From positions 691,473-755,472 of the forward strand of contig CBDCQG010000001.1 of NCBI GenBank assembly GCA_965220565.1: a stretch of 64,000 nucleotides of DNA, read 5' to 3'. This stretch comes from Dehalococcoidia bacterium (lineage in GTDB: Bacteria; Chloroflexota; Dehalococcoidia; UBA6926). A program made the translations under genes and the position numbers. The number at the start of each line of letters is the position of its first letter. The first letter of the stretch is position 1. Shown here one piece after another: positions 26,279 to 60,494 of this stretch. Under the pieces are notes generated by a model, which had not been told where the DNA came from, ran no database searches, and saw nothing but the letters and a program-made list of their open reading frames with translations.

Positions 26279-26325
26279 GATTCCCGCTTTCGCGGGAATG
26301 ACGGGTAGGGCGGCGGGAATGACGC
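26279..26325. repeat. Interspersed palindromic repeat, family A copy (inverted orientation), intergenic
   Basis: ggattcccgctttcgcgggaatgacgggtagggcggcgggaatgacg. Confidence 0.65.
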
Positions 26326-33240: not shown

Positions 33241-36200
33241 TTATCGTTTTACGGCTTTCTTCTCCACCCAGAACCGTCGACGCTGGAACGGGTAGCCGGG
33301 CAGCCTGATCTTTCGTCGTTCCTCCCCGGTGAATAGCCTGCTGAAGTCCACGTCATGCCCCGCCTCATAGGCCCGGGCCATGGCGTCCACCGTGCCAGAA
33401 TCCGTGTCGCCTGTGCTATCCACTGCCGCTGACTCGCTATCCCGGGTACCCGTTTCCTGTCCGGTGTCACCGGACGGAGAACCGGCATCCACAAGGCGTT
33501 CGAGGCCGCTCCGCAGCTCGTCTTGGTCTCTGAAAATCACGCACGCACGATGTGTAAAGTGACTTCGGCCGATGGACGCCGTCCACGCCATGTCTGCGAG
33601 CATGTCCGCAGTTGAGGCGCCGTCTTGGCCGCCATTGTCCAGCCACTCCAGGTAACTCGCTGCGAGGTCGCTCAGCGCGGCAGGATTCTTTGCCGAAAGG
33701 GGCAGAAGGCGTGCCGGCGGCTTTGTGGTCGCTTGCAGGTCGTCGGGGTTCAAACCGTTCTCAGCCGTGTAGCCTTCCACAATGACGTGCGCATTCGCGC
33801 CCGTCATGCCAAAGGTATTGATCCCGGCAATAGGGGCACGCGCGCCGTTGCCCGGCCACTCCTCCGCGTCCAGGGCAATCTGCAAAGGCATCTTCTTCCA
33901 ATCAATCTCCGGGCTTGGCGTGCTGAAATGGAGATGCCTGGGGATGAGATTGCGATTCATGGACAGCACGACCTTGATGAGGCTGGCCATGCCGGAGGCC
34001 GCTTCAAGGTGACCCACGTTCGTCTTGACTGATCCAAGGGTCAGCGGTTGGTCGCCGGGCCTGTCCTTCCCGTACACGTTTGCAATGGCATTCGCCTCAA
34101 TCGAATCGCCAAGTGGCGTCCCGGTCCCGTGAGCCTCAAGGTAATCAACGTCGGACGCAGAGATGCCGGACCTCTCCAGCGCCTCTCGCATAACCTTTTC
34201 CTGCGCCACGCCATTGGGGCTCGTGAAACTGAATCCCGCGCCATTCTGGTTGACTGCGGAACCCCGTACGACGCCCCAGATGCGATCCCCGTCTCTCTCC
34301 GCGTCGCCAAGCCGCTTGAGTATGACGAAACCGCAACCCTCGCCGCGCACGTAACCGTCGCCGGACGCGTCGAAGCTCGCCGTCTTGCCGCTCAGAGACA
34401 GCACGCCCAATTCCGCAAGGAACGTTGACGTTGACTGCGACAGCGCGATGTTCACGCCTCCCGCCAGGGCAAGATCAACCTCTCCGCGCTGCAGGGAGAC
34501 CACGCCCTGGTGCACTGCGGCGAGCGATGACGTGCAGGCAAGGTCGATCGGCACGGCAGGCCCTTGCAGCCCGAACGTGAACGCGATCCGGCCGACGGCC
34601 ATGCTTGGAATGGTTCCAAAGATGTCCTGGCCGCCGTTCATGGCAAGCACACTGCGGTACTCGCTGCCGCTGATGCCGGCATAGACGCCGGTTTGGCTTC
34701 CGCGCAATGCGTCCGGGTCGATCCCCGCATCCTCCAGCGCCTGCCACGCTGTTTCGAGGAGTAGGCGCTGCTGCGGGTCCATGGTGCGGGCCTCGATAGG
34801 CGCAATGCGGAAGAATCGGGCGTCGAATTCGTCAATATGATCCAGGAACGCGCCAAGACGCTCATAGGTGTTCTGCGCGGCGGGATCCCCAAAAACGCCC
34901 CTGTAGTCGCCGCCGTCCGTGCGCCCGTCCGTAACGGCGGACTCGCCGTTCTCAAGCAGACGCCAGAAGGCATCGAGGTTCTCTGACCCCGGGAAACGAC
35001 AGGCCATGCCGACGATGGCGATCGCATCGTCACCCGGACGCGGGCGCGGAGGCGACTCCGGCGTCCGCTCGTCTGCGGCGGCAACAGTTGTCGTGCTGCC
35101 GGCAGCCGCCCCCGGTTCACCGACTTCCTCGGCCAGATAAACTGCCAGCCGCGTGATGCTTGGGTAGTCAAAGACCACGGTGTTGGGCGCGACATAGAGA
35201 CCTTTGAGAGCGCTGTTGATGTTGTTCCTCAAAGCCACCGCCATGAGTGAGTCCATGCCAAGATCGGAGAACTCTGCTCCCGGGTTTGGTTGGGAGGGCA
35301 TGCGCATGATCGCCTGCAATTCATGCTGCAGAAACTCGGTAAACACGCTTTCGCGCTGCTCCAACGGCACGCCGCTGAGGCGGGCAGGCAAGTCATCCAT
35401 GGAGTCACCCGCCGAGGCAGAATCAGACTCGTCGGCAGCCGTGAATCTCTGCAGCATCGCCGGCGGATTCTGCATGTTTGACCGTATTGATTCCCAGTCG
35501 ATGGCGACGGCAACCGAATTGGTCCAGTCCTGCTTGATCAGGAACTCCAGCGTTTCAATGCCGCGTTCCGGCGTGATCCACCGGGAGCCTCTCTCTGCAA
35601 GCAGCTCGCCGATCCTCTCCCGCTGCTCCTCTGCCTCGCCAACCTCCGACCATGCGCCCCACGCGATCGCCTGGCCGGTCAGCCCCAGAGCCCGGCGATG
35701 TCGAACCAACTGGTCAAGGAATGTGTTGGCCGCGGCGTGATTCGACTGCCCCGGGTTCCCGAGGATTCCCGCCGCGCTTGAGAAAAGCACAAAGAGATCG
35801 AGGTCTCGATCCATCGTGGCGCGATGCAGATGCCATGCGCCCAAAACCTTTGGCCGGAGAATCTGCTCGAATCGCTCCCACGTTTGATTGCCGACCACGC
35901 CGTCCGAAAGCACACCAACGCTATGGATGACACCCGCGAGCGGCGGCAGTGATTGGTCGATACGCGTGAGCATTGCGTCGATTGCAGTGCTGTCCGTCAC
36001 GTCTGCAATCTCAACCTGTACGGTGACGCCGCGGGCGCGCAACTCGTCTATCGCATCCTGCGCTTCCGGGTCAGGATCACGCCGGCCGTTGAGCACGATT
36101 GCTCCTGCGCCCTTGTCCGCGAGCCAGCGCGCGACGGTGATGCCAATTCCGCCCAGTCCGCCGGTGATGAGGTATGTGCCGTCTTCTCGCAGGCGTTCAG

Positions 36201-39200
36201 TCTGGAGAGGAGAGTTGGCCAGCGCGATCTTGCCGATGTGCCGGGTATCGCGCATGTACGTGATTGCAGCCGGTGCCTCAGACAATGACCAGCGGGTGTG
36301 CGGGATGGGGGCGAGTGTGCCTGCCTCCATGTCCCGCAGCACCGTCTTCAGTGCCGCGCCGGGTATTTCCGGCTCTTCTCTCTTCAGCCGATCGAGCATG
36401 ATGATGTGGTAATCGACGTCGGGACGCTGTTCGGCCATCTCCTCTTCGGTCAGGATGCCCTCGCGGGCCAACTCGATGAAGCGGCCATTCTGCGCCAGGC
36501 AGGACAGGCTGGCGTCGATGAATCCCTCGCCGGTCAGGCTGTTGAGTACGACGTCGACGCCTTTGCCGCCGGTGTCGCGGAGTATCTCTTCCGCAAACTC
36601 TGTCGAGCGGCTGTTGTAGACGTGCGTGATTCCGAGTGACCTGAGGTACGGCTGCTTGCCGATGCTTGCCGTCGTATAGATCTCCGCGCCTACAGCCTTC
36701 GCCATCTCGATGGCTGCCAGACCCACGCCCCCGGAACCCGCGTGGATGAGCACCGTGTCGCCGGCCTGTAGACGCGCGAGGTCATAGGAAAGGGCGACGG
36801 TCACGAATGCGGTTGGTGCGGAGCCAAGACCCGTCTTCGATATGTTGGGCGGGGCGGAAGCGACAAGTGCCTCCTTGGTGATGATCTCCGGCCCAAACGT
36901 GCTGAACCCGATCCCGGCGACGCGATCCCCAACGGAGACGGAAGAAACGCCATCTCCGATTTCAATGATCTTGCCGACAAATTCCAGTCCGAGGTTGTCT
37001 TCACGTTCGATGCCAATGCTGATGAGCACGTCACGGAAATTGACGCCCACGGCCTCCATTGCGACACGAACCTCATGTGTTTCCAGTTCACGATGTGACT
37101 CAGGCTGCGGATGGACACGGCCGGGGTCGCCTGTTTCATCCGGCATAAGGAACCATTGGCCTTCGTCGGGCAGGGTGAGCCTTTCCGGTACATCGTCTGT
37201 GCGCGCCAACCGGGCAACCAGTCGATAGCCTGATCGGAGCGCGATGTGATTTTCGCCATCGGGCCGCAGCAGTTCATCAACAAGGTCGGCCAGGCGCGGG
37301 CTGTCGCCATCCAGGTCAACAACCTTGGGCTGAAGATCCGCAAGTTCCCTGATGATGACTCTGCCAAATCCCCAGAGGATCGCGCCGGCGGGCTGCGTGA
37401 ACTGCTCCCGTCGGGTGTCTTGCGCGCCTCGTGTCACAAGCCAGGCGCCGCTCTTTGGTTCCGAATTAGAGTCCAGGAGGCCCTGAACCATGGCCAGCGC
37501 GCTCGAACCAACTCGCCGGATGTCATCAGCGAGCCCGTCGGCGTCGATGTCTGACCCGTTCCCGCTCGTGGCAGCCAGGTGGACAACTCCTCGCAGCGGA
37601 ACGTCCTCTGGCAGACTCGCAAAGATCGATCCCCACGCCTCGCGGTCTCCCCTGTCAACGGCTATGCGTGAAACACCGTCAACGGAGCCATCCTCATGTG
37701 GCGCGCCTGCGCCTTTCTCGGTCACAACCAGGACGAGTTGGCTCCGAGACGCCAGTTCAGCCGCCAACTCGTCGGCCATGCCGTCGTCATCCGCGGCGAG
37801 CACCCAGGAACCCGGCTGCTCGACGATCTCGGCAGGGGCAGCGGCGATGATGACGGCGCGGTCAGGACGCTCCGACGAGTCACTCGTCCTGAGGCCGAGA
37901 ACCTGCGGGTCCTCAAAGGCCGTGTCCAGCAGCGCCTGTTCCCAGACGTCAGCGCCCGCAACACCGTGATTGGGCCGATAATGATCGGCAAATCGCCACC
38001 ACCCGTCCAGCGTTCCGAATGTCACGTCCTGCCATCCCTGGCCCTGGATCGACTCAATCGCGACGAGGTGGCCGGACGGCGCGAGAAGTGTCAGACAGTT
38101 CTGCAGGGTCTCGCTGAGAGAGATGGTGTCATGGAGCACGTTGGAGGCGATGACAAGGTCATAGCCGTGAGCGTCAAATCCCTGCTCGGCGGGATCGAGT
38201 TCGATGTTGAGAGGCATGTACGTTATCGCGCCGTCGGCAGTCCCAAATTGTGACTCCGCCTCCGCGAAGAATCCGGCGGAGATATCCGTGTACACGTACT
38301 CAAACCGGCCCTCAGGAAGCTGCGGCAGCACGGACATCGTGGCTGAGCCCGTGCCCGCTCCCACCTCGACAATGCGCAGTGTTCGCGTCTCGGGCAGATT
38401 CTCCAGCAGCGCGGCAATTGTGTCGCGAAGCATGTTGTTGACTGCGCGGGATGCGGGCGTTCGTATGAAGATGTCGGCGGGTGTAGGATCGCCGCTCCCG
38501 AACAACACCGTCAGCGGATCAGCCTGCCCGCGCAGAATATCCGCCAACTCTCCCGCAGCTCGACGGCACAGCGCCACCTCGATGGAGCCGTGAGGATAAC
38601 GCTCCAGCATCTCTGCGGCGAAGGCGTCCGGGTCAGTCGGCAGTTCACCCGGCAGAGAATCCTCTGGGCCAACCAGAACGTGGAAAGCGTCACCGGATTC
38701 TTGCAGGACGCCCGCCCGCGCAAGCAGCTCAAGGATTCTCCTGAACAGCTTGCTGTGCTCGTCCGTGACGCCCAATTCCCGCCTCAGGGTTTCCGGCTCG
38801 ATAACCGCGCCTGCCGTCTGTTGCCAGCCGAGCTTGGTCAGGGTGTCAAGCGCGAATGACCACGAAAGTCGTTCAAGATCGCGCAAAAGCGCGGTTCGAT
38901 CGCTCCAGTCCACGCCTTCCTGCGACAGATACTCCGCGAACGCCGGTGTAGTGGCCTGGATGGAGGACGGTTCCGGCAGGAAATCGGCGGGCTGCACGGG
39001 AGGCAACGGGCAGTCCTCCCAGACGATGTCGTACAGGAGGTCCTGCACGCTCTCCTCCGTCGAGAGCACGCTATCGCGGCTTGCCCGCTTAGCTGTAAAT
39101 CCTGTGATTCCTCCGAGCCGCTCACCTTCCGTCGAATAGATCTCAAGGTCCGCTGCGATGACCTCCGGCACAGTCCGTGCGCCGGAGGCGTCTGCCTGAT

Positions 39201-42200
39201 TGGCGGCTCTCAAGGTTGCGCGGCAGACAACCCTCTCGGGCAAGCCGCCGCTGAGCCACAATCGGTCCCATGCAAAGGGGAGATATGTCGTGCCGCTTGC
39301 CGTCTCATGCGTGGCGCGAGCCGCCGAAACGACCTGCAAGCATGCGTCAAGCAGGATGGGGTGGACGGCCAGGCCGGTGTTGCTCAGTCCCTCCGGCAAG
39401 CTGACCTCTCCGACTGCCATGCCGTTGCCCGTGAATGCCGAATCCACCGTGCGGAACAGGGGACCGAAGTCCAGGTTTGCCTCGCGCTTTGCCCGGTAGA
39501 ACTCTGAAATATCAAGCGATTCCAGGCCGGCCTTCAGGTCGTCAATGGTCACGCGCTCCGCAGCATCAGTGTTATCTGTTGCCGACGACAGCGTGCCCCG
39601 CGCGTGCAGAGTCCACGATTCCTCGCCGCTTCCCTTGCTGTAGATTTCAAACTCGCGAGCGCCTGAGTCGTCCGGAGCCTGCACCATGATTTGCACGGCG
39701 CGCGCACTATCGTCAGGCGAACTCTCCTCATCGGCCTCGCTGAACAGCAGCGGCGCCTGCATCTGCATGTCGTCGATGACGACTCCGCCGGACTCCTCCG
39801 CCCGGAACGCCTCCACAGCCATGACGCCATAGAGGGCCCCTGGCGCGATAACCCGGCCATACACACGGTGGTCGCTCAGCCAGGCGGGATCGTCTGGCAA
39901 CAACTCAGTCTCGAAATAAATCTCTCCGCGCGGCGATTCATGGCGCGTTCCGAGCAGTGGATGATCCGTTGAGGCTCTCTGCCGACGAGGCTCTTCGACC
40001 CAATGGCGATACCGCTGGAACGGATACTCCGGTACGGGAACCCGTCGCCGCGTCTCACCCGCATAGAGGTCACGGAAATCGATAGAAAGCCCGGCCTCGT
40101 ATGCAGCCTTAACCGCGGAGATGAAACCGCGAGTCTGGTCGATTGGCGGCTCGGTTTCATCGTGCGGCGGCCTGACCATGCTGGCAATAACCGGGGGGTC
40201 CTTGGCCGGAGCGCCCGGCGGCCAGCACATGGAGACAATCGCCCCAATGACTGCGCCCGGCCCGATCTCGATGACAAAATCGACTCCAAGTTCTGCCAGC
40301 GATTCAACGCTGGTTCGATACAGGACCTTCTCCCGTGAATGACGCATCCAATAGGCGGCATCGATGGGGACATCCGGATCAACCGGCTTGCCCGTCGCGC
40401 CGCAAATGAACTCGATCTGCGGTGCTCTAGGCTCCTTGACAATTTCACGGACTCTCTCCCCGAGCGGTTCGAGCATCGGCTCCAGCAGACTGCTATGGAA
40501 TGCCGGGCTGGGCGGCATACGCCTAACCCGAACTTCCTTAGCCTCGAATTTCTCGAGGACTGCCTCAACATCCGGTTCAGGCCCGCTGACGACGTGGTTG
40601 ATGCCGTTGTCAACGGCAATCGTCAGCCGGTTGTCGCCGGAGACCTGCTGTTGTTCCGCGATGGCCTCCTGCACGGCGGCCTCTGGAGCGAATACCACGC
40701 CCATTGCCGCACCAAGCGGGAGTCCGCTCATCAACTCTCCGCGCGCAGCAGTGAGGCGGATACCCTCTTCCAGGGTGAACACGCCGGCTGCTTGCGCCGC
40801 CGCGTATTCTCCGAGGCTGTGACCGGCGACCACGGCGGGCGTGACGCCGATGCTCTTCCAGAGGGCAGTGAGCGCGCACTCCACCGCGTAGATAGTGGGC
40901 ATGGCCCATCTCGAATCATCGAGGTCATCTGCCTTGCCGAACATGACATCGAGCAGGGAGACCCCGCGCTCTTTTTTGATGATGCGATCACAGCGGTCGA
41001 GCACGTCTCGCGCAACAGGCTCCGTCTCGTAGAGCGCTTGCGCCATACCCACCCACTGGCTGCCCTGTCCGGTGTAGACAAATCCGATCCTGGCGGGGCT
41101 GCCGACGGGAGATTGAGGAGTCGATTCAATAAGGTTGCTGAGGCCATCCCTCAGTGAGGCGGCTTCGCGGAACGGGATAGCGGCCCGGTAACGGAAATGG
41201 CTGCGGCCGATGCTTGCGGTCCAGGACATATCAGATAGGGCAGGGTCGGATGCCGCAGTCTCCGGAGGCGGGCCTCCCGATGTTTCGTCCAGCGCATTGA
41301 GGTAACGCTCTGCCAGTTCTTGCAGGCTCTCCGGCGACCGTGCGGAAAGCGGCAGCAATCGTGTCGGGCGCTGTGTGACATCCGCAGTGTCGTCAGAAAG
41401 TTGGGTCTCCACCTCGACAGCGGCGCCCACTGGCCACATCGTTGCTGCGCGTGATGCCGGTGCGCTGGCGGGCGCGCCGTACCCCTCGACGATGATGTGC
41501 GCGTTCGTGCCCGACCATCCGAAACCGCTGACACCGGCGCGTGGCGGCCTGCCATCAACTTTCGGCCACTCGGTTGCCTCGGTCGGCACGCGCAGATTGG
41601 CGTTCTCCCAGTCGATCGCCGTTGTGGGGTTCTCAAAATTCAGGTGCTTGGGGATGACGCCGCGCCGCATTCCCAGCACGACCTTCATGACGCCCGCGGC
41701 TCCCGACGCAGGTTCAAGGTGCCCGAAATTCGTCTTGACGGAGCCGATGAACATTGGTTGATCGGCCGGTCGCTGATTTCCATATGCGGCGGTGGCTGCG
41801 CTCAACTCCGCCGGGTCGCCCACCGGCGTGGCGGTTCCGTGCGCCTCCAGGTAGTCCACGTCCACCGGTGTAAGGCCGGCCGAGGACAGCGCATCGCGGA
41901 TGACATTCTCTTGTGACGACGCGCTCGGCACGGTGATGCCCTGGCTCGCGCCGTCCTGGTTGATGGCGGAGCCGCGGATCACACCCCAGATGCGGTCGCC
42001 GTCCCGCTCGGCGTCGCTCAGGCGCTTGAGAACAAGAACCCCGCAGCCCTCGCCGCGGAGGTAGCCGTCCGCGGCCTCGTCAAAGGTGCGGCACACGCCG
42101 TTCGGCGACAGCATCCCTGCTTGCCTGCGCAGATTCATGACCCTCGCGGAAAGGATGGCGTTGACGCCTCCGGCCAGGGCCAGGTTCGCCTCTCCGCGAT

Positions 42201-42813
42201 TCAGGGCGATTACAGCCTGGTGCATGGCAACCAGGGACGATGAGCACGCTGTATCTATGGAAATCGCGGGTCCTTCAAGTCCCAGCGCGTATGACACGCG
42301 GCCAATGGCGGTGTTGAGACTGCTTCCGCTGGCCGCATAGAGGCTGGTGGCAGGATCGTCCGCTTCAATGGACGCGATGGCCGCATACCGGTATTCGGCG
42401 TTGCTTATGCCGCCATAGACGCCGGTGCGCGTTCCCCTGAGACTCTCCGGATCGATGCCCGCGTCTTCAAGGGCACGCCAGCTGGTTTCGAGCATCAGGC
42501 GCTGCTGCGGGTCCAGCAGCTGCGCCTCTACCGGTGAGATTCTGAAGAATTCCGCATCGAACTTGTCGATATCCTCAATGAAAGCCGCGTAGTGCGTGGT
42601 GTCGCTCTGCGTCGGTGGAAGTTCCAGGAACTGACCCATGCGGCCGGGGCTGCCGGAGCCGATCATGCCCTCCGTCCGCACCATCGTCCCGGAGGCCAGC
42701 AAACGCCAGTAAGCGTCGTAGTCCTCGGCTCCGGGAAAGCGGCATGCCATGCCGATGATAGCGATGGGTTCGTTTGCTGCCATACCGCCTCCGAGTTTCA
42801 GGTGGGCTGACAT
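33241..42813 (-). CDS. Type I highly reducing polyketide synthase, 3190 aa: KS-AT-DH-cMT-(psiKR)-ER-KR-ACP-KS(AT-less)
   Basis: KS1 has DTACSSSL / EAHGTAT / NFGHLE. The AT has GHSLGE. The DH has HRVYGRVIAPGA. The C-MT has VEVGAGTGS. The ER has LIHAGSGGVGLAAIEMA. The KR has ITGGLGGIGITVARWL. The ACP has DLGMDSLMAV. KS2 has DLACTSSL / EAHGTGT / NVGHLE. After KS2 come the KS-AT linker and the post-AT YPFQRRRFW linker, but no AT core. Confidence 0.9.
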   Translation of the reverse strand: MSAHLKLGGGMAANEPIAIIGMACRFPGAEDYDAYWRLLASGTMVRTEGMIGSGSPGRMGQFLELPPTQSDTTHYAAFIEDIDKFDAEFFRISPVEAQLLDPQQRLMLETSWRALEDAGIDPESLRGTRTGVYGGISNAEYRYAAIASIEADDPATSLYAASGSSLNTAIGRVSYALGLEGPAISIDTACSSSLVAMHQAVIALNRGEANLALAGGVNAILSARVMNLRRQAGMLSPNGVCRTFDEAADGYLRGEGCGVLVLKRLSDAERDGDRIWGVIRGSAINQDGASQGITVPSASSQENVIRDALSSAGLTPVDVDYLEAHGTATPVGDPAELSAATAAYGNQRPADQPMFIGSVKTNFGHLEPASGAAGVMKVVLGMRRGVIPKHLNFENPTTAIDWENANLRVPTEATEWPKVDGRPPRAGVSGFGWSGTNAHIIVEGYGAPASAPASRAATMWPVGAAVEVETQLSDDTADVTQRPTRLLPLSARSPESLQELAERYLNALDETSGGPPPETAASDPALSDMSWTASIGRSHFRYRAAIPFREAASLRDGLSNLIESTPQSPVGSPARIGFVYTGQGSQWVGMAQALYETEPVARDVLDRCDRIIKKERGVSLLDVMFGKADDLDDSRWAMPTIYAVECALTALWKSIGVTPAVVAGHSLGEYAAAQAAGVFTLEEGIRLTAARGELMSGLPLGAAMGVVFAPEAAVQEAIAEQQQVSGDNRLTIAVDNGINHVVSGPEPDVEAVLEKFEAKEVRVRRMPPSPAFHSSLLEPMLEPLGERVREIVKEPRAPQIEFICGATGKPVDPDVPIDAAYWMRHSREKVLYRTSVESLAELGVDFVIEIGPGAVIGAIVSMCWPPGAPAKDPPVIASMVRPPHDETEPPIDQTRGFISAVKAAYEAGLSIDFRDLYAGETRRRVPVPEYPFQRYRHWVEEPRRQRASTDHPLLGTRHESPRGEIYFETELLPDDPAWLSDHRVYGRVIAPGALYGVMAVEAFRAEESGGVVIDDMQMQAPLLFSEADEESSPDDSARAVQIMVQAPDDSGAREFEIYSKGSGEESWTLHARGTLSSATDNTDAAERVTIDDLKAGLESLDISEFYRAKREANLDFGPLFRTVDSAFTGNGMAVGEVSLPEGLSNTGLAVHPILLDACLQVVSAARATHETASGTTYLPFAWDRLWLSGGLPERVVCRATLRAANQADASGARTVPEVIAADLEIYSTEGERLGGITGFTAKRASRDSVLSTEESVQDLLYDIVWEDCPLPPVQPADFLPEPSSIQATTPAFAEYLSQEGVDWSDRTALLRDLERLSWSFALDTLTKLGWQQTAGAVIEPETLRRELGVTDEHSKLFRRILELLARAGVLQESGDAFHVLVGPEDSLPGELPTDPDAFAAEMLERYPHGSIEVALCRRAAGELADILRGQADPLTVLFGSGDPTPADIFIRTPASRAVNNMLRDTIAALLENLPETRTLRIVEVGAGTGSATMSVLPQLPEGRFEYVYTDISAGFFAEAESQFGTADGAITYMPLNIELDPAEQGFDAHGYDLVIASNVLHDTISLSETLQNCLTLLAPSGHLVAIESIQGQGWQDVTFGTLDGWWRFADHYRPNHGVAGADVWEQALLDTAFEDPQVLGLRTSDSSERPDRAVIIAAAPAEIVEQPGSWVLAADDDGMADELAAELASRSQLVLVVTEKGAGAPHEDGSVDGVSRIAVDRGDREAWGSIFASLPEDVPLRGVVHLAATSGNGSDIDADGLADDIRRVGSSALAMVQGLLDSNSEPKSGAWLVTRGAQDTRREQFTQPAGAILWGFGRVIIRELADLQPKVVDLDGDSPRLADLVDELLRPDGENHIALRSGYRLVARLARTDDVPERLTLPDEGQWFLMPDETGDPGRVHPQPESHRELETHEVRVAMEAVGVNFRDVLISIGIEREDNLGLEFVGKIIEIGDGVSSVSVGDRVAGIGFSTFGPEIITKEALVASAPPNISKTGLGSAPTAFVTVALSYDLARLQAGDTVLIHAGSGGVGLAAIEMAKAVGAEIYTTASIGKQPYLRSLGITHVYNSRSTEFAEEILRDTGGKGVDVVLNSLTGEGFIDASLSCLAQNGRFIELAREGILTEEEMAEQRPDVDYHIIMLDRLKREEPEIPGAALKTVLRDMEAGTLAPIPHTRWSLSEAPAAITYMRDTRHIGKIALANSPLQTERLREDGTYLITGGLGGIGITVARWLADKGAGAIVLNGRRDPDPEAQDAIDELRARGVTVQVEIADVTDSTAIDAMLTRIDQSLPPLAGVIHSVGVLSDGVVGNQTWERFEQILRPKVLGAWHLHRATMDRDLDLFVLFSSAAGILGNPGQSNHAAANTFLDQLVRHRRALGLTGQAIAWGAWSEVGEAEEQRERIGELLAERGSRWITPERGIETLEFLIKQDWTNSVAVAIDWESIRSNMQNPPAMLQRFTAADESDSASAGDSMDDLPARLSGVPLEQRESVFTEFLQHELQAIMRMPSQPNPGAEFSDLGMDSLMAVALRNNINSALKGLYVAPNTVVFDYPSITRLAVYLAEEVGEPGAAAGSTTTVAAADERTPESPPRPRPGDDAIAIVGMACRFPGSENLDAFWRLLENGESAVTDGRTDGGDYRGVFGDPAAQNTYERLGAFLDHIDEFDARFFRIAPIEARTMDPQQRLLLETAWQALEDAGIDPDALRGSQTGVYAGISGSEYRSVLAMNGGQDIFGTIPSMAVGRIAFTFGLQGPAVPIDLACTSSLAAVHQGVVSLQRGEVDLALAGGVNIALSQSTSTFLAELGVLSLSGKTASFDASGDGYVRGEGCGFVILKRLGDAERDGDRIWGVVRGSAVNQNGAGFSFTSPNGVAQEKVMREALERSGISASDVDYLEAHGTGTPLGDSIEANAIANVYGKDRPGDQPLTLGSVKTNVGHLEAASGMASLIKVVLSMNRNLIPRHLHFSTPSPEIDWKKMPLQIALDAEEWPGNGARAPIAGINTFGMTGANAHVIVEGYTAENGLNPDDLQATTKPPARLLPLSAKNPAALSDLAASYLEWLDNGGQDGASTADMLADMAWTASIGRSHFTHRACVIFRDQDELRSGLERLVDAGSPSGDTGQETGTRDSESAAVDSTGDTDSGTVDAMARAYEAGHDVDFSRLFTGEERRKIRLPGYPFQRRRFWVEKKAVKR

Positions 42814-42887: not shown

Positions 42888-44504
42888 TTGACCGGCCGGC
42901 TTAGCTACAGTTGGGGACTACTCCGCGGCGATGTTCTTGGCGGCCTGACCTCCGGCAGCATCGTTCTTCCTGCGGCAATAGGCTACGGCGTGATCTCCGG
43001 GCTTGGCCCCGTTGCGGGTCTGTACGGCGCGGTGGCTGTCAGCTTCTTCGGAGCCATCTTTGGCGGAACACGGGGCATGATCTCCGGCCCGAACATCCTG
43101 GTGACGCTGACGATGGCAGTGACCGTATCGCATTACGCGACGAGCCTCGGCGAAGCATTTCTCGCCGCGATCCTGGCGGGGCTCATCCAGATCGGTTTCG
43201 GCGCTCTGAAGATCGGCCGGTACGTGTCCTACATTCCATACTCGCTTATCGCGGGTTTCTTCACGGCCTTCGGCATCATATTGATCCTGAAGCAGTTCCT
43301 GCTTGGGCTTGGCGCATCAGTGGCCGGCAGCGCCCTGGACAACATCCGCGCATTGCCGGATGCGTTTAGAGAGCCCAACGTGGAAGCCGTTATCGTCACC
43401 GTCCTCAGTGTTGCGCTGGGGGTAGCGTGGCGAGGAAGGCTCCTGAAGATCGCTCCCTCCCAATTCGCCGTGTTGGTTTGCGGAACCGTCACGGCGATTC
43501 TCCTCTTCCAGGGAGCGCCGACGATCGGAGAGATCCCCCGAGAACTCCCCGCGCCGCAACTGCCCGCGCCTGACGTGGACACGCTTCTGCGGATTGCCCA
43601 GCCCGCCTTTGCCATGGCGCTGCTCAGTTCCCTGTCCACGCTCATCGTCGCGCTGCCCCTGGACACCATTACCGGCACGCAGCACAAACCAAACAGGGAA
43701 TTGATTGCTCAAGGCATGGGCAATATCGGCGCGGGACTCATCGGCGGCTTGCCGGGCGGCGTATCCTCCGGCACGTTCGCCGGCGCCTTCAGCGGGGCGC
43801 GAACCCAGGTAGCCGGGCTGACCGTCACGGTACTCATCATCTCCATCATCTTCGTCCTTGGGCCGATTGCGGAGCGCATTCCTCTTGCCGTCCTTGCGGG
43901 CATCCTCATCATCAACGGCTGGAGCATCATCGATTGGCGATTCATCAAGCGGCTGCATCGCGTGCCCGTCGACTACACAATCGTCATGGCCCTGACCTGC
44001 CTCCTTGTGCTCTTTGTGGACATCACTCTCGCCGTGTTTGTTGGCTTTGTCGTGTCATCCCTGGCCGGCGCGCGGCGACGTGGAGAACTGGAAACCCAGG
44101 ACCTCATCTCAATCCCGGTCCTTGACAGCGTGCTGCTTGACGGCGACGAGGCAGACCCGTTTGAGGCGCGCGCCGGCATCGTCATCTTCCCAGATCGCGT
44201 CACGGTGGCCTCAACCCGTGAGGTGAGCCGCATCGTCCGCTCCGACATCCTTGGGCATCAGATCGTCATCTTCGATATGTCCCGCACGTACTTCATTGAC
44301 GATTCCGCGGCCGTGGCGATAGGGGACCTGATCAGGATTGCGGCCGTTCGCCGGCCGGGACGTGTTGTCATCACGGGATTGACGAGGCCGGTCACGGAAA
44401 CCCTCGATGCGTTCGGCCTGCGCGCTGCGATGCCGGACGGGTTGATTATTCCGGACATGGACGCCGCGAGAGCCAGGGTGCGCGACCTGCTGACGAGCAA
44501 GTAA
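42888..44504 (+). CDS. SulP family anion (sulfate/bicarbonate) permease with C-terminal STAS domain
   Basis: It has the SulP TM core (GMISGPN...) and a STAS domain at the C-terminus. It is divergent from the PKS gene. Confidence 0.75.
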   Translation: MTGRLSYSWGLLRGDVLGGLTSGSIVLPAAIGYGVISGLGPVAGLYGAVAVSFFGAIFGGTRGMISGPNILVTLTMAVTVSHYATSLGEAFLAAILAGLIQIGFGALKIGRYVSYIPYSLIAGFFTAFGIILILKQFLLGLGASVAGSALDNIRALPDAFREPNVEAVIVTVLSVALGVAWRGRLLKIAPSQFAVLVCGTVTAILLFQGAPTIGEIPRELPAPQLPAPDVDTLLRIAQPAFAMALLSSLSTLIVALPLDTITGTQHKPNRELIAQGMGNIGAGLIGGLPGGVSSGTFAGAFSGARTQVAGLTVTVLIISIIFVLGPIAERIPLAVLAGILIINGWSIIDWRFIKRLHRVPVDYTIVMALTCLLVLFVDITLAVFVGFVVSSLAGARRRGELETQDLISIPVLDSVLLDGDEADPFEARAGIVIFPDRVTVASTREVSRIVRSDILGHQIVIFDMSRTYFIDDSAAVAIGDLIRIAAVRRPGRVVITGLTRPVTETLDAFGLRAAMPDGLIIPDMDAARARVRDLLTSK

Positions 44505-44529: not shown

Positions 44530-44625
44530 CCCACTCCGTCATTCCCGCTCCCACTCCGTCATTCCCGCGAAAGCGGGAATCCAGAATCCCCTCCCCCTTG
44601 ATGGGGGAGGGCTAGGGTAGTGTTA
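44530..44625. repeat. Composite interspersed repeat locus: two family-A half/full copies followed by a family-B-like palindrome (CCCCTCCCCCTTGATGGGGGAGGG)
   Basis: ccactccgtcattcccgctcccactccgtcattcccgcgaaagcgggaatccagaatcccctcccccttgatgggggagggctagggtag. Confidence 0.7.
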
Positions 44626-45735
44626 CCCCCAGACGTTCTGAGCGGTCTCAGCGACTAGCCGGAGTTTTGCGTTCTGCTCTTCGATCGTGAGTCGGTTGCC
44701 GACGATGGACGTGCCGAATCCACACTGGGGGCTGATGGCCAGCTGTTCGTGGGGGAAGTGCTGGGCGGCCTCGGTGATCCTGGCCGCAAGCTCCGGCGGT
44801 GTTTCCGGGCGCGGCGACTTGGTGGTGACCAGCCCAAGCGCCACGGTCTTGTCGTCGGGCACGCCGCGCAAAGGCTCGAATGAGCCTGAGCGCTCGTCGT
44901 CGTACTCCAGCATGAGACGATGCGCGTTGATCTGTTGGAGCACCGGTTCGACGATCCGATCGTAGCCGCCCTCGGCCAGCCAACGGCTGCCCTGGTTGCC
45001 TCGTCAAAGGTGGAACGCGAACGTCGTCTCCGTGAAGCCGTCCATCACTGCGTTGTCCAGTTCAATCCCCTGGGAGATCCAGTCCTCTCCGGACCGGCCC
45101 TGGGACTCATAGAATGCCGCCCACGTCGGATCGAGTATGAGCGGGTAGTGTGGAGCGTCGAGTTGGATGTAGGTCGCGCCAAGCCTGGTTAGCTCTTCGA
45201 TCTCCTCGCGGATGATCTGCGCGACATCCCCCAGGAACGCGTCGAGCGTGGGATAGGCCTCGATGGATCTGCTTGGCGACCAGAAATTGGCGAACAGGCT
45301 TGGACTCGGAAGCGTCACCTTCGGCATGCGTGTTGTTCGGCTGCGGAGGTAGGTGAATTCCTCTGCTGACAGGTGACGTTTGCGCCGGAGCTTGCCGACG
45401 ACGCCAAGGGTTGCCGGGCGCTCCGTCGGCGCGTTTCCTACCCGCTCGTCGCCCCGCCAATCACCCCAGAGGAACGCGTTGATGTCGAACTCGCCGAAGC
45501 CTTCCACTGCCTCAGGCATCTGGCTCTGGAAGGACAACCGCCGCATCTCGCCGTCCGTGAGAACCTCGAATCCGGCATCTTCCTGGGCGGTCACTGCGCT
45601 ATCGACGGCGGCATCCTCAACACGCTTGAACTCCGAGGGCGTGATTCGTCCGGCCGCGATGTCCTCGCGCGCGGCGAGCAACTCGGGCGGCCTGATCAGG
45701 CTCCCAACCACGTCGGCATGCGGCAAGTTCAACAT
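44623..45735 (-). pseudogene. MetE-like (cobalamin-independent methionine synthase family, short form) methyltransferase interrupted by one in-frame TGA (45004-45006) at the Zn-ligand Cys of the H-x-C motif. It is either a nonsense pseudogene or a selenocysteine (U) gene
   Basis: The two ORFs 45004-45735 and 44623-44943 are in the same frame and separated only by TGA: ...TETTFAFHL*RGNQGS.... The downstream ISPQCGFG motif (second Zn Cys) is intact. A hairpin (44974-44991) begins 12 nt after the TGA. Confidence 0.6.
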
Positions 45736-51065: not shown

Positions 51066-51069
51066 CCCC

Positions 51070-51094
51070 CAGTCATTCCCGCGAAAGCGGGAAG
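51070..51094. repeat. Interspersed palindromic repeat, family A copy
   Basis: cagtcattcccgcgaaagcgggaag. Confidence 0.65.
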
Positions 51095-51107: not shown

Positions 51108-51938
51108 ATGTCCTTGATCCCGCCTACATTCCTGGACAAGGTCGTCGCGCTGGGCACGCCGGACAAGGACGGAAACATACGGTACGCCGCCTCCGGCTTC
51201 TTGTACGGGCAGCCTTCAGGGAACCAGGGTCGATACTACGTTTACCTGGTCACGAATCGGCACGTTGTGAAAGGGATACGCAGCCCGCAGATACGCTTCA
51301 ATGCGCTTGCCGGGACTGCTCCGAAGATACTGCCTTTGCCTCCAAATGATGACGGACCGAACGATCACTGGATCTTTCATCCTGACCCGGATGTCGACGT
51401 TGCCGTTCTGCTGATAGACTCACTTGGTCAAGCCCTGAAAGATGTGAAGATGGCGTTCTTCACGGGAAACGTGCAGACGGAACGCCTGGAGTCCATGAAG
51501 AGCGGTTCCGTTTCAGAGGGAGACGAAGTCTATGTGCTCGGTTTCCCTCTTGGACTGGCCGGCGCTGAACAGAACTATGTGATCGTGCGGCAGGGAGTCA
51601 TCGCCCGGATTCAGGACTGCTATGAGCAGCGCTCCAAGGAATTCCTGATTGATTCGTTTGTCTTTCCGGGCAATAGCGGAGGCCCGGTCATTCTCAAGCC
51701 AACCATGTTCTCGTATGGCCAGACGCGCCCGGACCCCAAGTTGATAGGCGTTGTGGCTGCTTATCAGCCGTTCGTTGACGTCGCTCTCAGTGAGCAGACC
51801 GGAACTCCCAGGCTGATCGTCCAGGAGAACTCCGGACTTGCCACGGTGATTCCCGTCGATCTGATCCAGGAGACCGTTGAATTGGCGGCGGAACGGTATG
51901 GGATTACCCAACCATCCCCGTCCGTCATTCCCGCGTAA
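51108..51938 (+). CDS. Cytoplasmic trypsin-like (S1/Trypsin_2 type) serine peptidase, no signal peptide
   Basis: The catalytic triad context is LVTNRHVV (His), DVAVLLI (Asp) and GNSGGPV (Ser). 276 aa. It is flanked on both sides by family-A repeats. Confidence 0.65.
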   Translation: MSLIPPTFLDKVVALGTPDKDGNIRYAASGFLYGQPSGNQGRYYVYLVTNRHVVKGIRSPQIRFNALAGTAPKILPLPPNDDGPNDHWIFHPDPDVDVAVLLIDSLGQALKDVKMAFFTGNVQTERLESMKSGSVSEGDEVYVLGFPLGLAGAEQNYVIVRQGVIARIQDCYEQRSKEFLIDSFVFPGNSGGPVILKPTMFSYGQTRPDPKLIGVVAAYQPFVDVALSEQTGTPRLIVQENSGLATVIPVDLIQETVELAAERYGITQPSPSVIPA

Positions 51939-56064: not shown

Positions 56065-57192
56065 ATGGGGAAAGGGACTCAACTCATCGGAGTGCTGACG
56101 GTTTTTATGGCCGTCGTTCTCCTCTCAGGCTGCCAGTTGGCGTTGCCGCAGAGCACGCTCCACCCGGCAGGTGACGTAGCCCAGAGTCAACAGGATCTCT
56201 TCGTCTTTATCTTCTGGATCGCCGTCGTTATCTTTATCGGCGTCCAGGGTTTCCTGATTATCGCGGTGCTCAAGTATCGTGCGAGGCGCGGCCACGAGAA
56301 TGACATCCCTCCGCAGACTCACGGCAACACGCCGCTTGAGATCGGATGGACCATCGCGCCCTCTCTGATTGTTATCGCCATTACTATCCCAACGGTCGCT
56401 GGCATCGGCGCCACGTATGACGCTCCGTCCCAATACGCCGATGACCCGTCACTCACTATTGAGGTCGTCGGCCACCAATGGTGGTGGGAGTACCGCTACC
56501 TCGATGAGAACGGCGACCTTGATTTCATCACCGCCAATGAACTGCACATTCCCATCGATACCGTCATCAACCTCAAACTCTCCTCGAATGACGTTATCCA
56601 CAGCTTCTCCGTTCCGCGCCTTGCAGGCAGCCGTGACGTCGTGCCCGGCCGCGTCAACCGTATGTGGCTGAACGCGACGGAAACCGGTGTGTACGCGGGG
56701 CAGTGCAAGGAGTTCTGTGGAGATTCCCACGCCTTGATGCGAACCGTCGCCTTTGCGCGCGAGCTCGATGATTACGAGGCATGGGCCGCGAATGAGCGCC
56801 AGCCGGCGGTGGACAGAACTGCGGCGATGGAAGCGGGCTGGGTCGTGTTCCAGGAGAATGCCTGCCGCGGCTGCCACACCATTGAGGGCTCAACCGAGGA
56901 CGAGTATGAGTTGGCCATTGGTGTGACCGGCCCCAACCTCTCGCACTTTGGGTCGCGTGTCACCATTGCGGCCAACACACTGCACAAGGGCCCGGCGGAT
57001 ATGAACATGGGCGCTTTCTTCGATGACGTGCCGACTGATCCGGACTTCATGCAGCGCGATCCGGAGGCTGAAAACCTCAAGCGGTGGCTCAACAACGCGC
57101 CGGATGTGAAGCCCGGCACGGAGATGCCTGATCTTAACCTCACTGACCAGCAGCTTGATGATCTCGTATTCTTCCTGGAGAGCCTGAAGTAA
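56065..57192 (+). CDS. ctaC: Cytochrome c oxidase subunit II with C-terminal cytochrome c domain (caa3-type)
   Basis: It has two TM helices, the CuA site H...CKEFCGDSHALM, and the C-terminal heme-c site CRGCH. Confidence 0.9.
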   Translation: MGKGTQLIGVLTVFMAVVLLSGCQLALPQSTLHPAGDVAQSQQDLFVFIFWIAVVIFIGVQGFLIIAVLKYRARRGHENDIPPQTHGNTPLEIGWTIAPSLIVIAITIPTVAGIGATYDAPSQYADDPSLTIEVVGHQWWWEYRYLDENGDLDFITANELHIPIDTVINLKLSSNDVIHSFSVPRLAGSRDVVPGRVNRMWLNATETGVYAGQCKEFCGDSHALMRTVAFARELDDYEAWAANERQPAVDRTAAMEAGWVVFQENACRGCHTIEGSTEDEYELAIGVTGPNLSHFGSRVTIAANTLHKGPADMNMGAFFDDVPTDPDFMQRDPEAENLKRWLNNAPDVKPGTEMPDLNLTDQQLDDLVFFLESLK

Positions 57193-57215
57193 CGGGCGGC
57201 AGGCTGAAGGAGTAG

Positions 57216-59078
57216 ATGACGATGGCTATGCTAGGGGGCTTGCTCGAGAGACCCACCGGGACAACCGGTATCTGGAGTTGGCTGACGACGATCGATCACA
57301 AGAGGATCGGTACGCTCTACCTTGTCACGGCGTTCTTCTTCTTCATTGTCGGCGGCATTGAGGCCAGCCTGATGCGGCTGCAGCTGGCGGTTCCGGATTC
57401 GACCATCATCAGCGCCAATGTGTTCAGCCAGCTGTTCACGATGCATGCGCTGACCATGATCTTCCTGGCCATCATGCCGCTCAGCGTGGCGTTCTTTAAC
57501 TGGATTGTCCCGCTGCAGATTGGCGCGCGGGACGTTGCATTCCCACGCCTGAACGCCCTCAGCTACTGGGTGTTCCTCTTTGGCGCGATCATCCTGAACC
57601 TTGGCTGGTTCACCATGACCGCTCCGGCGGCCGGCTGGTTTGCCTACGCCAACCTGACCAACACCACCTTCTCTCCCACCAGCGGCATGGACTTTTACGT
57701 CCTCGGCCTGCTTGTGCTGGGAACGTCCTCACTGCTGGGCGCGTTCAACTTCGTTGTGACCATCATCAATCTGCGCGCCCCCGGCATGTCGCTTATGCGA
57801 ATGCCGATCTTCACGTGGATGGCGTTCATCACGTCCTTCCTGCTGGCCCTGGCCATGCCCGTCATCACGATCGGCCTGGTCGAGTTGGGCTTCGACCGGT
57901 TCTTTGGCACAAACTTCTTCGTGTTTGAGCGCGGCGGTGATGTGCTTCTCTGGCAGCACCTGTTCTGGGTGTTCGGCCATCCGGAGGTATACATCCTCAT
58001 CCTGCCGGCCATGGGAATCGTTTCCGAGATCCTGCCCACGTTTTCCCGCAAGCCGCTCTTCGGCTTCCCGGTCGTCGTCTTCTCCGGCCTGACCATCGCA
58101 TTCCTTGGATGGTCCGTGTGGGCGCACCACATGTTTGCCGCCGGTCTCGGCCCCGTGCCGGACGCCGTTTTCGCGACGACAACAATGGCGATTGCCATCC
58201 CCACCGGCGTCAAGGTGTTCAACTGGCTGGCAACGTTATGGGGAGGCAACATACAGCTCAAGACGCCGATGTACTTTGCAATCGGGTTCATTGCGCTGTT
58301 CACCATCGGCGGACTGAGCGGCATGACACACGCCGCCGCCCCGTCCGACCTACAACAGACGGATACCTACTACATCGTTGCCCACATTCATTACGTGCTC
58401 TTTGGCGGCTCGATCATGGCTATCCTGGGCGGAATCTTCTACTGGTTCCCGAAGATGTCCGGCCGCATGATGAGCGAATACCTGGGCAAGTGGAGCTTCT
58501 GGCTTGTCTTCATCGGCATGAACATGACGTTTGGTCCGATGCACTACCTGGGCCTCGTCGGGATGCCGCGGCGGAACTTCACGTTCCCTGAAGGCATGGG
58601 CTGGGACGTGTGGAACCTGGTGGCATCGCTTAGCGTGCTGTTCATGATCTTCGGAGTCGGGGTGTTCGTGTACAACGCGCTTCGCAGCGCGCGCAGCGGC
58701 GCGGTTGCCGGGAATGACCCGTGGGATGCCCGCACGCTGGAATGGGCGATGTCATCCCCGCCGCCGCACTATAACTTTGCCGAGATTCCGGTCGTCCATG
58801 GCCGTGACGCCCTCTGGGAGCAGAAGTACCCGGATGAGGAGCATGCCGCTCCGCAACCCGTTCCCGCCGGCGGCGCTGATGAGGCAGATGAGCACCATGA
58901 CATCCACATGCCGAGCCCATCCTACTTCCCGTTGATTGTCGCGCTTGGCATCTTTGCTCTGGGCATCACGATGCTGCTCTATCAGGCCTCTCCCATCGCC
59001 GGTTATGTCGCAGGCGCGATCGGCCTGATCCTCCTGCTCTGGGGCTCATACGGCTGGATCTTCGAGCCAACGGACTGA
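57216..59078 (+). CDS. ctaD: Cytochrome c oxidase subunit I (heme-copper oxidase catalytic subunit)
   Basis: WLTTIDHKRIGTLY, the 12-TM core and the conserved His ligands. 620 aa. Confidence 0.95.
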   Translation: MTMAMLGGLLERPTGTTGIWSWLTTIDHKRIGTLYLVTAFFFFIVGGIEASLMRLQLAVPDSTIISANVFSQLFTMHALTMIFLAIMPLSVAFFNWIVPLQIGARDVAFPRLNALSYWVFLFGAIILNLGWFTMTAPAAGWFAYANLTNTTFSPTSGMDFYVLGLLVLGTSSLLGAFNFVVTIINLRAPGMSLMRMPIFTWMAFITSFLLALAMPVITIGLVELGFDRFFGTNFFVFERGGDVLLWQHLFWVFGHPEVYILILPAMGIVSEILPTFSRKPLFGFPVVVFSGLTIAFLGWSVWAHHMFAAGLGPVPDAVFATTTMAIAIPTGVKVFNWLATLWGGNIQLKTPMYFAIGFIALFTIGGLSGMTHAAAPSDLQQTDTYYIVAHIHYVLFGGSIMAILGGIFYWFPKMSGRMMSEYLGKWSFWLVFIGMNMTFGPMHYLGLVGMPRRNFTFPEGMGWDVWNLVASLSVLFMIFGVGVFVYNALRSARSGAVAGNDPWDARTLEWAMSSPPPHYNFAEIPVVHGRDALWEQKYPDEEHAAPQPVPAGGADEADEHHDIHMPSPSYFPLIVALGIFALGITMLLYQASPIAGYVAGAIGLILLLWGSYGWIFEPTD

Positions 59079-59116
59079 ATAAGAGACCGACCAGGAAACG
59101 CTAAAGGACATCGTAC

Positions 59117-59719
<603 letters not shown>

Positions 59720-59757
59720 GGCGGGCTAAGAGGACACGCAAAGCGAGGAACGGCAAC

Positions 59758-60069
59758 ATGGCGACAGCAGAGCAACAGGCGCACACGGAAGATCACCCAA
59801 CTCCGCGTACCTATGTCCAGGTCGCGATCCTCCTCACGGTCATCACGATCATTGAGGTTGCCATCGTCATCGTTGACGTGCCTGCAGTCATCCTCATTTC
59901 ATCGTTGCTCGCCTTATCCGCCGTCAAATTCGCCTTCGTCGTCGGCTGGTTCATGCATCTCAAGTTCGACGCAAAACTGTACCAGGCCCTTTTCCTCGGC
60001 GGCCTCTTCCTGGCGATAGCCGTCCTGCTGGCATTGGTCGCGCTCTTCGAGAACTTCACCCTCCCATGA
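59758..60069 (+). CDS. ctaF: Cytochrome c oxidase subunit IV (prokaryotic caa3 CtaF-like)
   Basis: The 103-aa ORF has 2-3 TM helices, including the HLKFD motif. Its position is directly after ctaE. Confidence 0.7.
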   Translation: MATAEQQAHTEDHPTPRTYVQVAILLTVITIIEVAIVIVDVPAVILISSLLALSAVKFAFVVGWFMHLKFDAKLYQALFLGGLFLAIAVLLALVALFENFTLP

Positions 60070-60118
60070 GAGACGGAACGAGAGATTAGTAGAGGAACCG
60101 GGAAAAGGTAGGACAAGC

Positions 60119-60400
60119 ATGGCGGCGGACCACGACGAACACACAGGAACGAACAACGTCATGGATCGGCTTATTGTTCCGATCATGTTGCCGGTTGTCG
60201 CCCTCATCGTCACCGTCGTGCTGATTGTTGCAATCGGACAACTCCTCTATGCCGTCGTCCCGCATGACTATGTGAAGCTGGCCGGCGAAAAGGTCTACTA
60301 CTCAGTGCCCGTCGCGCTTGGCCTGGCGCTCATCTTTCTCATCGGATTCGCTTTCCTGGCGGCCCGCGCGCCGGACGACGACGGCGGCGACTCCCAGTAG
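60119..60400 (+). CDS. Small hypothetical membrane protein within the oxidase cluster
   Basis: 93-aa ORF with 2 TM helices. Confidence 0.4.
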   Translation: MAADHDEHTGTNNVMDRLIVPIMLPVVALIVTVVLIVAIGQLLYAVVPHDYVKLAGEKVYYSVPVALGLALIFLIGFAFLAARAPDDDGGDSQ

Positions 60401-60494
60401 CTTGTCGCCGCTGAGTCACGGCGGCCCAACCGCTTTGGCACATTTACAGCGCGTCGGCATCCGCAACGCGCCGGAAAAGGCGTAGGATTGCGGC

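Follow-up and report, generated by a model that had tools for sequence, protein, structure and literature searches.

The 64,000-nucleotide stretch of Dehalococcoidia DNA analysed here (the window; contig CBDCQG010000001.1) carries on its minus strand, at 44623..45735, a MetE-like coding sequence of 370 residues with one in-frame TGA (45004..45006). This TGA is codon 244 and coincides with the cysteine of a His-x-Cys zinc-ligand motif, for which the closest Cys-containing form has TGC. The gene is very probably an intact selenoprotein gene in which the TGA encodes selenocysteine (Sec). This reading rests on the recurrence of the TGA at the same codon in many lineages, on purifying selection acting on both sides of it, and on a hairpin resembling a selenocysteine insertion sequence (SECIS) that begins shortly after it.

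The coding sequence and its predicted metal site

The coding sequence runs from an ATG (45735..45733) to a terminal TAA (44625..44623) and reads as 370 sense codons with the TGA as the single internal stop, there being no other stop and no frameshift in the window sequence or its translation. The residues surrounding the TGA are FAFHL-TGA-RGNQGSRW (TTFAFHL-TGA-RGNQGSRWLAEGGY in the longer context). The Pfam domain Meth_synt_2 (PF01717) covers residues 9–364 and scores 67.4 bits (cutoff 21; E = 1.8e-18), and the closest solved structure in a PDB comparison is the Listeria protein 1YPX, which matches residues 6–370 with E = 3e-47. The nearest models of ~370 residues are the NCBIfam 'methionine synthase II' models PRK06520 and PRK06233, whose curated cutoffs are not reached (230.5 vs. 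313 and 214.4 vs. 576, respectively). By these scores the window protein belongs to a subfamily distinct from both, for which NCBIfam release 20 contains no dedicated model. The equivalog cutoffs for full-length methionine synthase were also missed (48 vs. 930 for TIGR01371, 52 vs. 541 for PRK05222 and 214 vs. 576 for PRK06233), and the N-terminal folate-binding domain is absent, the protein being one single domain of 370 residues. Because it lacks this domain and fails these cutoffs, the protein should not be called MetE or a 5-methyltetrahydrofolate-dependent methionine synthase.

Alignment to Candida MetE (3PPF) and to 1YPX matches the TGA with the Cys in HFC/HIC and Cys338 with the second ligand cysteine. 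His242 (codon 45010..45012), the first zinc ligand of what would be an H-x-U motif, aligns with the His of MetE HFC and is His in 120/120 of the best homologues. Cys338 (codon 44722..44724, in ISPQCGFG) aligns with VNPDCG of MetE and would be a second Cys-type ligand, one that is kept as Cys, and Glu277 (codon 44905..44907, in LMLEYD), which matches the Glu of MetE ...SIEF..., would be the third ligand. The Glu motif L-E-[YF]-D and the second-Cys motif Q-C-G-F are kept in all 99 full-length TGA forms. We take the His-x-Cys...Glu...Cys positions to be zinc ligands as in the established MetE structures, from which the role given to Glu277 is also borrowed, and the metal of the site would by this alignment be zinc. 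The initial annotation had described two open reading frames (ORFs) that form one gene in one frame, split solely by the TGA at 45004-45006, and had assigned them to the MetE-like methyltransferases, with the stop exactly at the H-x-[C] zinc-ligand position and the downstream ISPQCGFG intact. The translation, the PF01717 score together with the structure alignment, the alignment to MetE and 1YPX, and the position of Cys338 at 44724..44722 agree with it on each of these points.

Conservation of the TGA and of the frame beyond it

Among the best 120 protein homologues from a protein-database search (66–91% identity), the position of the TGA is occupied by Cys in 120/120, within the motif HLC[RK]GNQ, and full-length proteins from TGA-bearing orthologues are missing from this set, presumably because such genes are cut short at the TGA by gene callers. 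Since TGA forms are not visible among full-length proteins, a search was made at the DNA level, using a pattern in which the invariant residues were back-translated and the TGA was held fixed (CAY NTN TGA MRN GGN AAY CAR N6 MGN TGG YT). The target was a species-representative collection with one genome per species (596 billion bases, two strands), for which the ~41-bit pattern and the collection size give, by our own arithmetic and under uniform base composition, a chance expectation of ~1 match. The scan returned at least 119 TGA loci under ~14 phylum-level labels, all of them in frame within the homologous gene, with an open frame of at least 241 codons upstream and ~126 codons downstream, save at contig ends and in three damaged copies that have extra stops (L028, L051 and L058). 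The initial annotation had named Cys in all orthologues as an outcome that would speak against Sec; this is what the best 120 proteins show, where it is a false negative, and it is false at the DNA level.

By record title, the matches listed comprise Poribacteria (17), Binatia (18), Dehalococcoidia (17), other Chloroflexota (11), 'delta proteobacteria'/Desulfobacterota-type (~21), Acidobacteriota (13) and Methylomirabilota/NC10 (7), and further loci come from Latescibacterota, Gemmatimonadales, Tectomicrobia, Verrucomicrobiota, Planctomycetota, Nitrospinota, Cytophagia and Gammaproteobacteria. These loci were assembled by many independent projects from short-read as well as long-read data. When the same pattern with TGH was applied to metagenome contigs, the first 120 matches contained 83 TGC, 18 TGT and 19 TGA codons. 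Two separate TGA copies, L021 and L107, occur in one Udaeobacter metagenome-assembled genome (MAG; isolate SMAG_U10962).

Close to the window, six Dehalococcoidia MAGs carry TGA orthologues that are 88.9–92.2% identical to the window protein (L053, L081, L116, L084, L091 and L008), and the DNA of one of them, L084 (OZ241912.1), is 94% identical to the window across the adjoining SulP gene, which assigns the window to a Dehalococcoidia lineage. Seven TGA forms and one Cys form (P0001) fall within a protein distance of 0.12, and because the immediate clade has this composition, P0001 with its locus L001 is probably a recent reversion from Sec to Cys. The gene of L001 (10001-11191), the sole Cys (TGC) form in the immediate clade, keeps the GUU hairpin loop described below and has AGT as its Ser +6 codon. 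A rough neighbour-joining tree of 305 proteins requires at least 22 switches between Sec and Cys and includes clades made up entirely of Sec forms, with 42, 17, 14 and 6 members.

The region beyond the TGA evolves as a translated protein. For the seven close TGA genes (21 pairs), the ratio of nonsynonymous to synonymous divergence (dN/dS) is 0.067 over the 126 downstream codons vs. 0.069 over the 243 upstream codons, at a synonymous divergence (dS) of 0.3–0.95, and the downstream region has neither indels nor stops. The codons R-G-N-Q directly after the TGA vary almost only synonymously among 132 distinct TGA sequences. The conserved TGA and the protein-level purifying selection on its two sides together show, on this comparative evidence, that the TGA is read through in translation. 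TGA also serves as the ordinary terminal stop in 30/111 of the TGA-form genes, and the recoding is therefore local and site-specific rather than the result of an altered genetic code.

The SECIS-like hairpin and the alternatives to selenocysteine

The hairpin occupies window positions 44974..44991 on the minus strand, where the initial annotation had located it exactly, 12 nt after the UGA and roughly at the usual place of a bacterial SECIS element. Its mRNA sequence is GGCAGCC-GUU-GGCUGGCC, i.e., GGCAGCC-GUU-GGCUG(G)CC, in which nt 16–22 (counted after the U of UGA) pair with nt 26–33 around one bulged G, so that 12 nt separate the UGA from the stem and 19 nt separate it from the loop. The consensus of the TGA forms over nt 16–33 is GGCAGCC-G[G/U]U-GGCUG(N)CC, and the minimum free energy (MFE) is −12.5 kcal/mol in the window and −10.4 kcal/mol on average over the 132 TGA forms. 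The Zhang and Gladyshev consensus for bacterial SECIS (bSECIS) elements, as quoted in PMC13188914, describes a loop of 3–9 nt, an upper stem of at least 4 bp, an MFE of −7.5 kcal/mol or lower, a G in the first two loop positions that is usually followed by G/U, and a distance of 16–37 nt between UGA and loop. The window hairpin, with its GUU loop, a stem of 5+2 bp, a spacing of 19 nt and −12.5 kcal/mol, agrees with this description in 4/4 criteria.

A sharper distinction comes from the apical loop (44982..44984), which is G-U-U in the window and G-G-U in 100/132 TGA forms, and whose middle base is the third position of the Arg codon at +7. This base is G or U in 132/132 TGA forms vs. 28/96 Cys forms (Fisher p = 1e-35), the Cys forms having C or A in 68/96. 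Accordingly, the Arg +7 codon of the TGA forms is CGG in 99, CGT in 32 and AGG in 1, with neither CGC nor CGA, while the 96 Cys forms use CGC 63 times, CGT 16 times, CGG 11 times and CGA 4 times. Codon bias does not account for this contrast, because at Arg +1 of the same TGA genes, taken as an internal control, CGC is the commonest codon (57% vs. 0% at +7). In the stem, pair 18:30 is formed in 89% of the TGA forms vs. 57% of the Cys forms and covaries (CG 100, GC 6, AU 3); over the helix, 93.3% of the cells are paired and 12 cells carry double changes vs. 4.5 in shuffles, with 0/500 shuffles reaching the observed value. Taken together, the sequence comparison shows an RNA element with SECIS properties that is constrained only in the TGA forms.

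Several observations weigh against the Sec reading. The closest of the best 120 protein homologues, P0001 with 91% identity, has TGC at the site (locus L001). A scan of 10 ORFs in the 64-kb window revealed no selA, selB, selC or selD, as these ten, of a size fitting SelA, SelB or SelD, encode unrelated proteins (LPG synthase, amine oxidase, CtaA/UbiA, COX1 and others), and no tRNA-Sec was found in the window or in the 120 fetched loci. The 4–5 bp core of the stem is set by the conserved S-R-W-L codons and is also formed in 94% of the Cys forms, so that no more than one or two pairs show covariation. Rfam yielded no SECIS match, either at the gathering threshold or at E <= 10, and folding of the single sequence gave no significant result (z = −1.23). 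The comparison of loop bases draws on TGA and Cys DNA sets that come mostly from different collections, so that lineage effects on codon usage are controlled in part, by Arg +1. On the presence of Sec users in the class, the ten bacteria richest in selenoproteins in BSepDB (PMC13326102) include two Dehalococcoidia MAGs.

The initial annotation had left a choice between a Sec codon and a very recent pseudogene, in which a nonsense mutation would have turned TGC into TGA before the downstream part had time to decay. Such an event would need one base change relative to the 91%-identical homologue at L001, and Cys is present in all of the best 120 protein homologues. However, the same TGA is common to six sister species and to at least 119 loci overall, the downstream dN/dS is as low as 0.067 at a dS of 0.3–0.95 with no indels or stops, and neither the recurrence at one codon in ~14 phyla nor the loop-base constraint is expected of nonsense mutations. 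A pseudogene is thus extremely unlikely, and of the two options put forward it is the selenocysteine candidate that the at least 119 TGA loci, the six close relatives, the dN/dS and the SECIS-like hairpin favour. We give equally little credence to a sequencing or assembly error that conceals a TGC or TGT codon: some related long-read MAG loci (L028, L051 and L058) do have extra stops, and the Cys form L001 has a GUU loop as well, but the nearest relatives show the same TGA in different assemblies, and the loop and stem bases of the window are typical of the TGA forms of its clade.

The third alternative accepts the TGA and dispenses with Sec, the UGA being either read by a near-cognate tRNA as Trp, Cys or Arg, or used for termination followed by a restart that yields two assembling polypeptides. 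The Sec machinery missing from the 10 ORFs scanned in the window would fit either version, and a GTG lies 21 codons downstream of the TGA, where a restart could begin. However, conservation in the protein is highest over the 20 codons between the TGA and this GTG, which differ synonymously and are therefore translated in frame, and this excludes a restart at the GTG. Against non-Sec use in general stand the position of the stop exactly on the Cys ligand, a placement also seen in Cys/Sec pairs from established selenoprotein families, the SECIS-type loop constraint in the TGA forms only, and the carrier lineages, which have a Sec-type selD or are known Sec users. We regard non-Sec use of the UGA as quite improbable, and the inserted residue is, by the same sequence comparisons, presumably Sec itself.

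In the selenocysteine reading, Sec-tRNA(Sec) would decode the UGA at codon 244 and thereby give the full-length protein of 370 residues, with SelB, recruited by the hairpin 12 nt downstream (loop G-U-U 19 nt away), delivering the Sec-tRNA(Sec). The product would be a single-domain zinc alkyl- or methyltransferase of the MetE fold with the metal site His242–Sec244–Glu277–Cys338, on which a thiol or selenol substrate would most likely be activated by the zinc and then methylated. Homocysteine would be the default guess for this substrate, while the lack of the folate-binding domain offers no such guess for the methyl donor. The zinc-ligand cysteines of MetE and of its single-domain homologue YxjG have been reported as targets of oxidative S-thiolation, which leads to methionine starvation (PMC4360819), and this offers a rationale for Sec at the site. 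A selenolate ligand may accordingly confer better oxidation resistance or easier repair, or it may raise the nucleophilicity of the zinc-bound substrate. The hairpin that is nearly pre-formed in the Cys forms may, in turn, explain why Cys was converted to Sec repeatedly.

Gene neighbourhoods in the window and in other phyla

In the window, the neighbours of the gene are a SulP permease, a PPC-domain protein and a polyketide synthase (PKS). The SulP-family permease (42888-44504, plus strand) is convergent with the gene, and this adjacency is kept in L084 (96% amino acid identity), L081, L029, L091 and L116 as well as in the Cys-form locus L001. A single ORF of 3190 residues occupies 33241-42813 on the minus strand, and the syntenic position of L001, a locus that shares both the SulP permease and nearby PKS genes with the window, holds PKS genes with ketosynthase, acyltransferase, dehydratase, KR and PP-binding domains. 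Further away, at 56065-63286 on the plus strand, lie cytochrome c oxidase subunit I, the caa3 assembly factor CtaG and a CtaA/UbiA (haem A/O synthase) fusion; because the window has these caa3-type oxidase genes, the organism is probably aerobic. Past the gene itself, a perfect 9-bp GC-rich hairpin, CCCTCCCCC-ATCAA-GGGGGAGGG (44589..44611, minus strand), was read directly from the sequence 11 nt after the TAA and has no U-tract; it probably marks the end of the transcript. Shortly after the gene, at 44532-44568, GCGGGAATGACGGRGTG is present in two exact tandem copies, with degenerate copies at 26292-26308, 51066-51082 and 51918-51934, so that the window contains 5 matches vs. 0.05 expected. 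A similar motif is found in the intergenic region after the gene of L001, and the repeat may be an intergenic element like the repetitive extragenic palindromes. The GC content of the window is 61.6%, and a scan for other in-frame-TGA genes based on the GC content of third codon positions was noisy.

A different context was found in other phyla, where TGA orthologues are placed in selenoneine-type clusters. The order egtD – metE-like(TGA) – senA – OsmF-type ABC transporter occurs in Methylomirabilota/NC10, Tectomicrobia, Thermoanaerobaculia, a Gammaproteobacteria MAG and others, with senB added at the Planctomycetota and Latescibacterota loci and with neither senB nor senC within 8 kb at the Methylomirabilota loci. 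In Poribacteria, the order is Amidohydro_2 – metE-like(TGA) – selD(senC) – senB, with selD and senB on the same strand. Six loci exemplify the clusters (L011 3867-8000, L012 472-6235, L063 3-4093, L061 2038-7999, L009 4081-7884 and L066 72-4613), and ~30 further loci show such a placement. The SenA proteins score 502–526 bits against the NCBIfam cutoff of 420 and stay under the EgtB cutoff in 7/7 proteins checked, and representatives of SenB, EgtD and SelD are above their NCBIfam cutoffs. The poribacterial selD has a classical in-frame TGA of its own within the N-terminal motif LAKTCG-U-AAKVSP (MNLNKLSRKHTLTSLAKTCG-TGA-AAKVSP), and selD genes of this type were found at L009 (~6830-7884, plus strand), L066, L104, L059, L034 and L049; ORF callers shorten the Sec-type SelD by ~35 residues. 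A relaxed BLAST search of the fetched loci found no additional SelD copies beyond those of Poribacteria. In the Binatia/'delta' clade, the neighbours are TauE/SafE, an ICMT-like methyltransferase, a UbiD-family enzyme, an isochorismatase and Amidohydro_2.

The Cys-form loci L151 and L182 have the arrangement senA-egtD-ABC-metE-like. A specific link between the sen cluster and the Sec forms was considered and dropped, the two sets being drawn from different collections and L151 and L182 showing the same context. As the Cys loci share this context, the link belongs, by gene order, to the family and not to the Sec forms alone. An aromatic-amino-acid lyase (PF00221, HAL-like) is a neighbour in 13 of the Cys loci (metagenome loci, including L190 416-1852) and an OsmF-type (betaine-binding) protein is a neighbour in 14, which hints that the family of the window gene acts in the metabolism of histidine-derived betaines. 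For the window, tblastn found no matches to SelD, SenA, SenB, EgtD or OsmF, and the sen-cluster adjacency does not occur there. Kayrouz et al. (bioRxiv 10.1101/2022.04.13.486033), describing the sen cluster in a preprint, note that many sen clusters have a putative selenate transporter nearby, and the main text names no methyltransferase and no homocysteine-related gene as part of the cluster.

Meaning and comparison with known systems

A May 2026 review of >110 prokaryotic selenoprotein families with Pfam and NCBIfam identifiers has no entry for PF01717, MetE, homocysteine or methionine synthase, and no mention of a Sec-containing MetE or methionine synthase was found in the selenoproteome literature searched. 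Within the searchable literature, the proteins with TGA thus apparently form a selenoprotein family that has not been described so far and that uses the standard bacterial recoding mechanism. A wider reading, which we hold to be possible but rather doubtful, is that this is an unrecognised, widespread selenoprotein family, the first natural enzyme with a selenolate on a catalytic zinc, and in many phyla a dedicated component of selenoneine/hercynine metabolism. In that case, the substrate methylated might be a selenol or thiol, selenoneine for instance, or the enzyme might recycle methyl groups for EgtD, and a role of this kind, if true, would explain its position between egtD and senA and beside selD-senB. 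The recurrent placement in selenoneine-type clusters makes the gene a candidate for an unassigned step in the metabolism of small selenium molecules.

Recognition of the Sec codon would mend the annotation in well over 100 species and for roughly one in six of the metagenome members sampled; otherwise, the gene is presumably split or truncated and listed as a pseudogene or as a fragment of 243 residues. If Sec is indeed a ligand of a Lewis-acid zinc, the family would provide a natural test of how a selenolate affects zinc-thiolate alkylation or oxidation resistance. A hairpin encoded mostly by the S-R-W-L codons may account for the ~22 Cys/Sec switches and would be a simple model for the origin of SECIS elements.

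Compared with the known systems, the window protein is most similar to the single-domain 'cobalamin-independent methionine synthase II' proteins (PRK06520/PRK06233, 1YPX), with which it shares the length of ~370 residues, the PF01717 fold and the pattern HxC-RGN...LEYD...QCGF, whereas its first Cys ligand is encoded by TGA and its scores are under the NCBIfam cutoffs. We take B. subtilis YxjG and YxjH to be members of this single-domain family, and we know of no member with a defined methyl donor. The zinc site aligns residue for residue with that of the catalytic C-terminal domain of full-length MetE; however, the window protein lacks the N-terminal folate-binding domain, shows low identity (E ~1e-11) and has Sec in place of Cys. 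With the selenoneine cluster senA/senB/senC and egtD, the link is through the TGA orthologues of other phyla, which sit within it, while the window has none of these genes.

In its recoding signal, the gene resembles the classical Sec genes of the E. coli fdhF type, having a UGA, a short downstream hairpin with a loop of G followed by G/U, and Cys homologues, although its loop is very small (3 nt) and its stem largely coincides with the S-R-W-L codons and is nearly pre-formed in the Cys homologues. Most selenoproteins are redox enzymes in which Sec is the reacting residue, and to our knowledge no natural catalytic site with a Zn-selenolate has been described. The nearest functional parallel would be the selenoproteins in which Sec replaces a Cys that coordinates the catalytic metal, as in [NiFeSe] hydrogenase and Mo/W formate dehydrogenase. 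Predicted metal-binding selenoprotein families include SaoB/SaoC and MbdU (PMC13188914). From the metal-ligand selenoproteins, the window protein would differ in its expected metal, zinc, and in its expected reaction, a non-redox methyl transfer.

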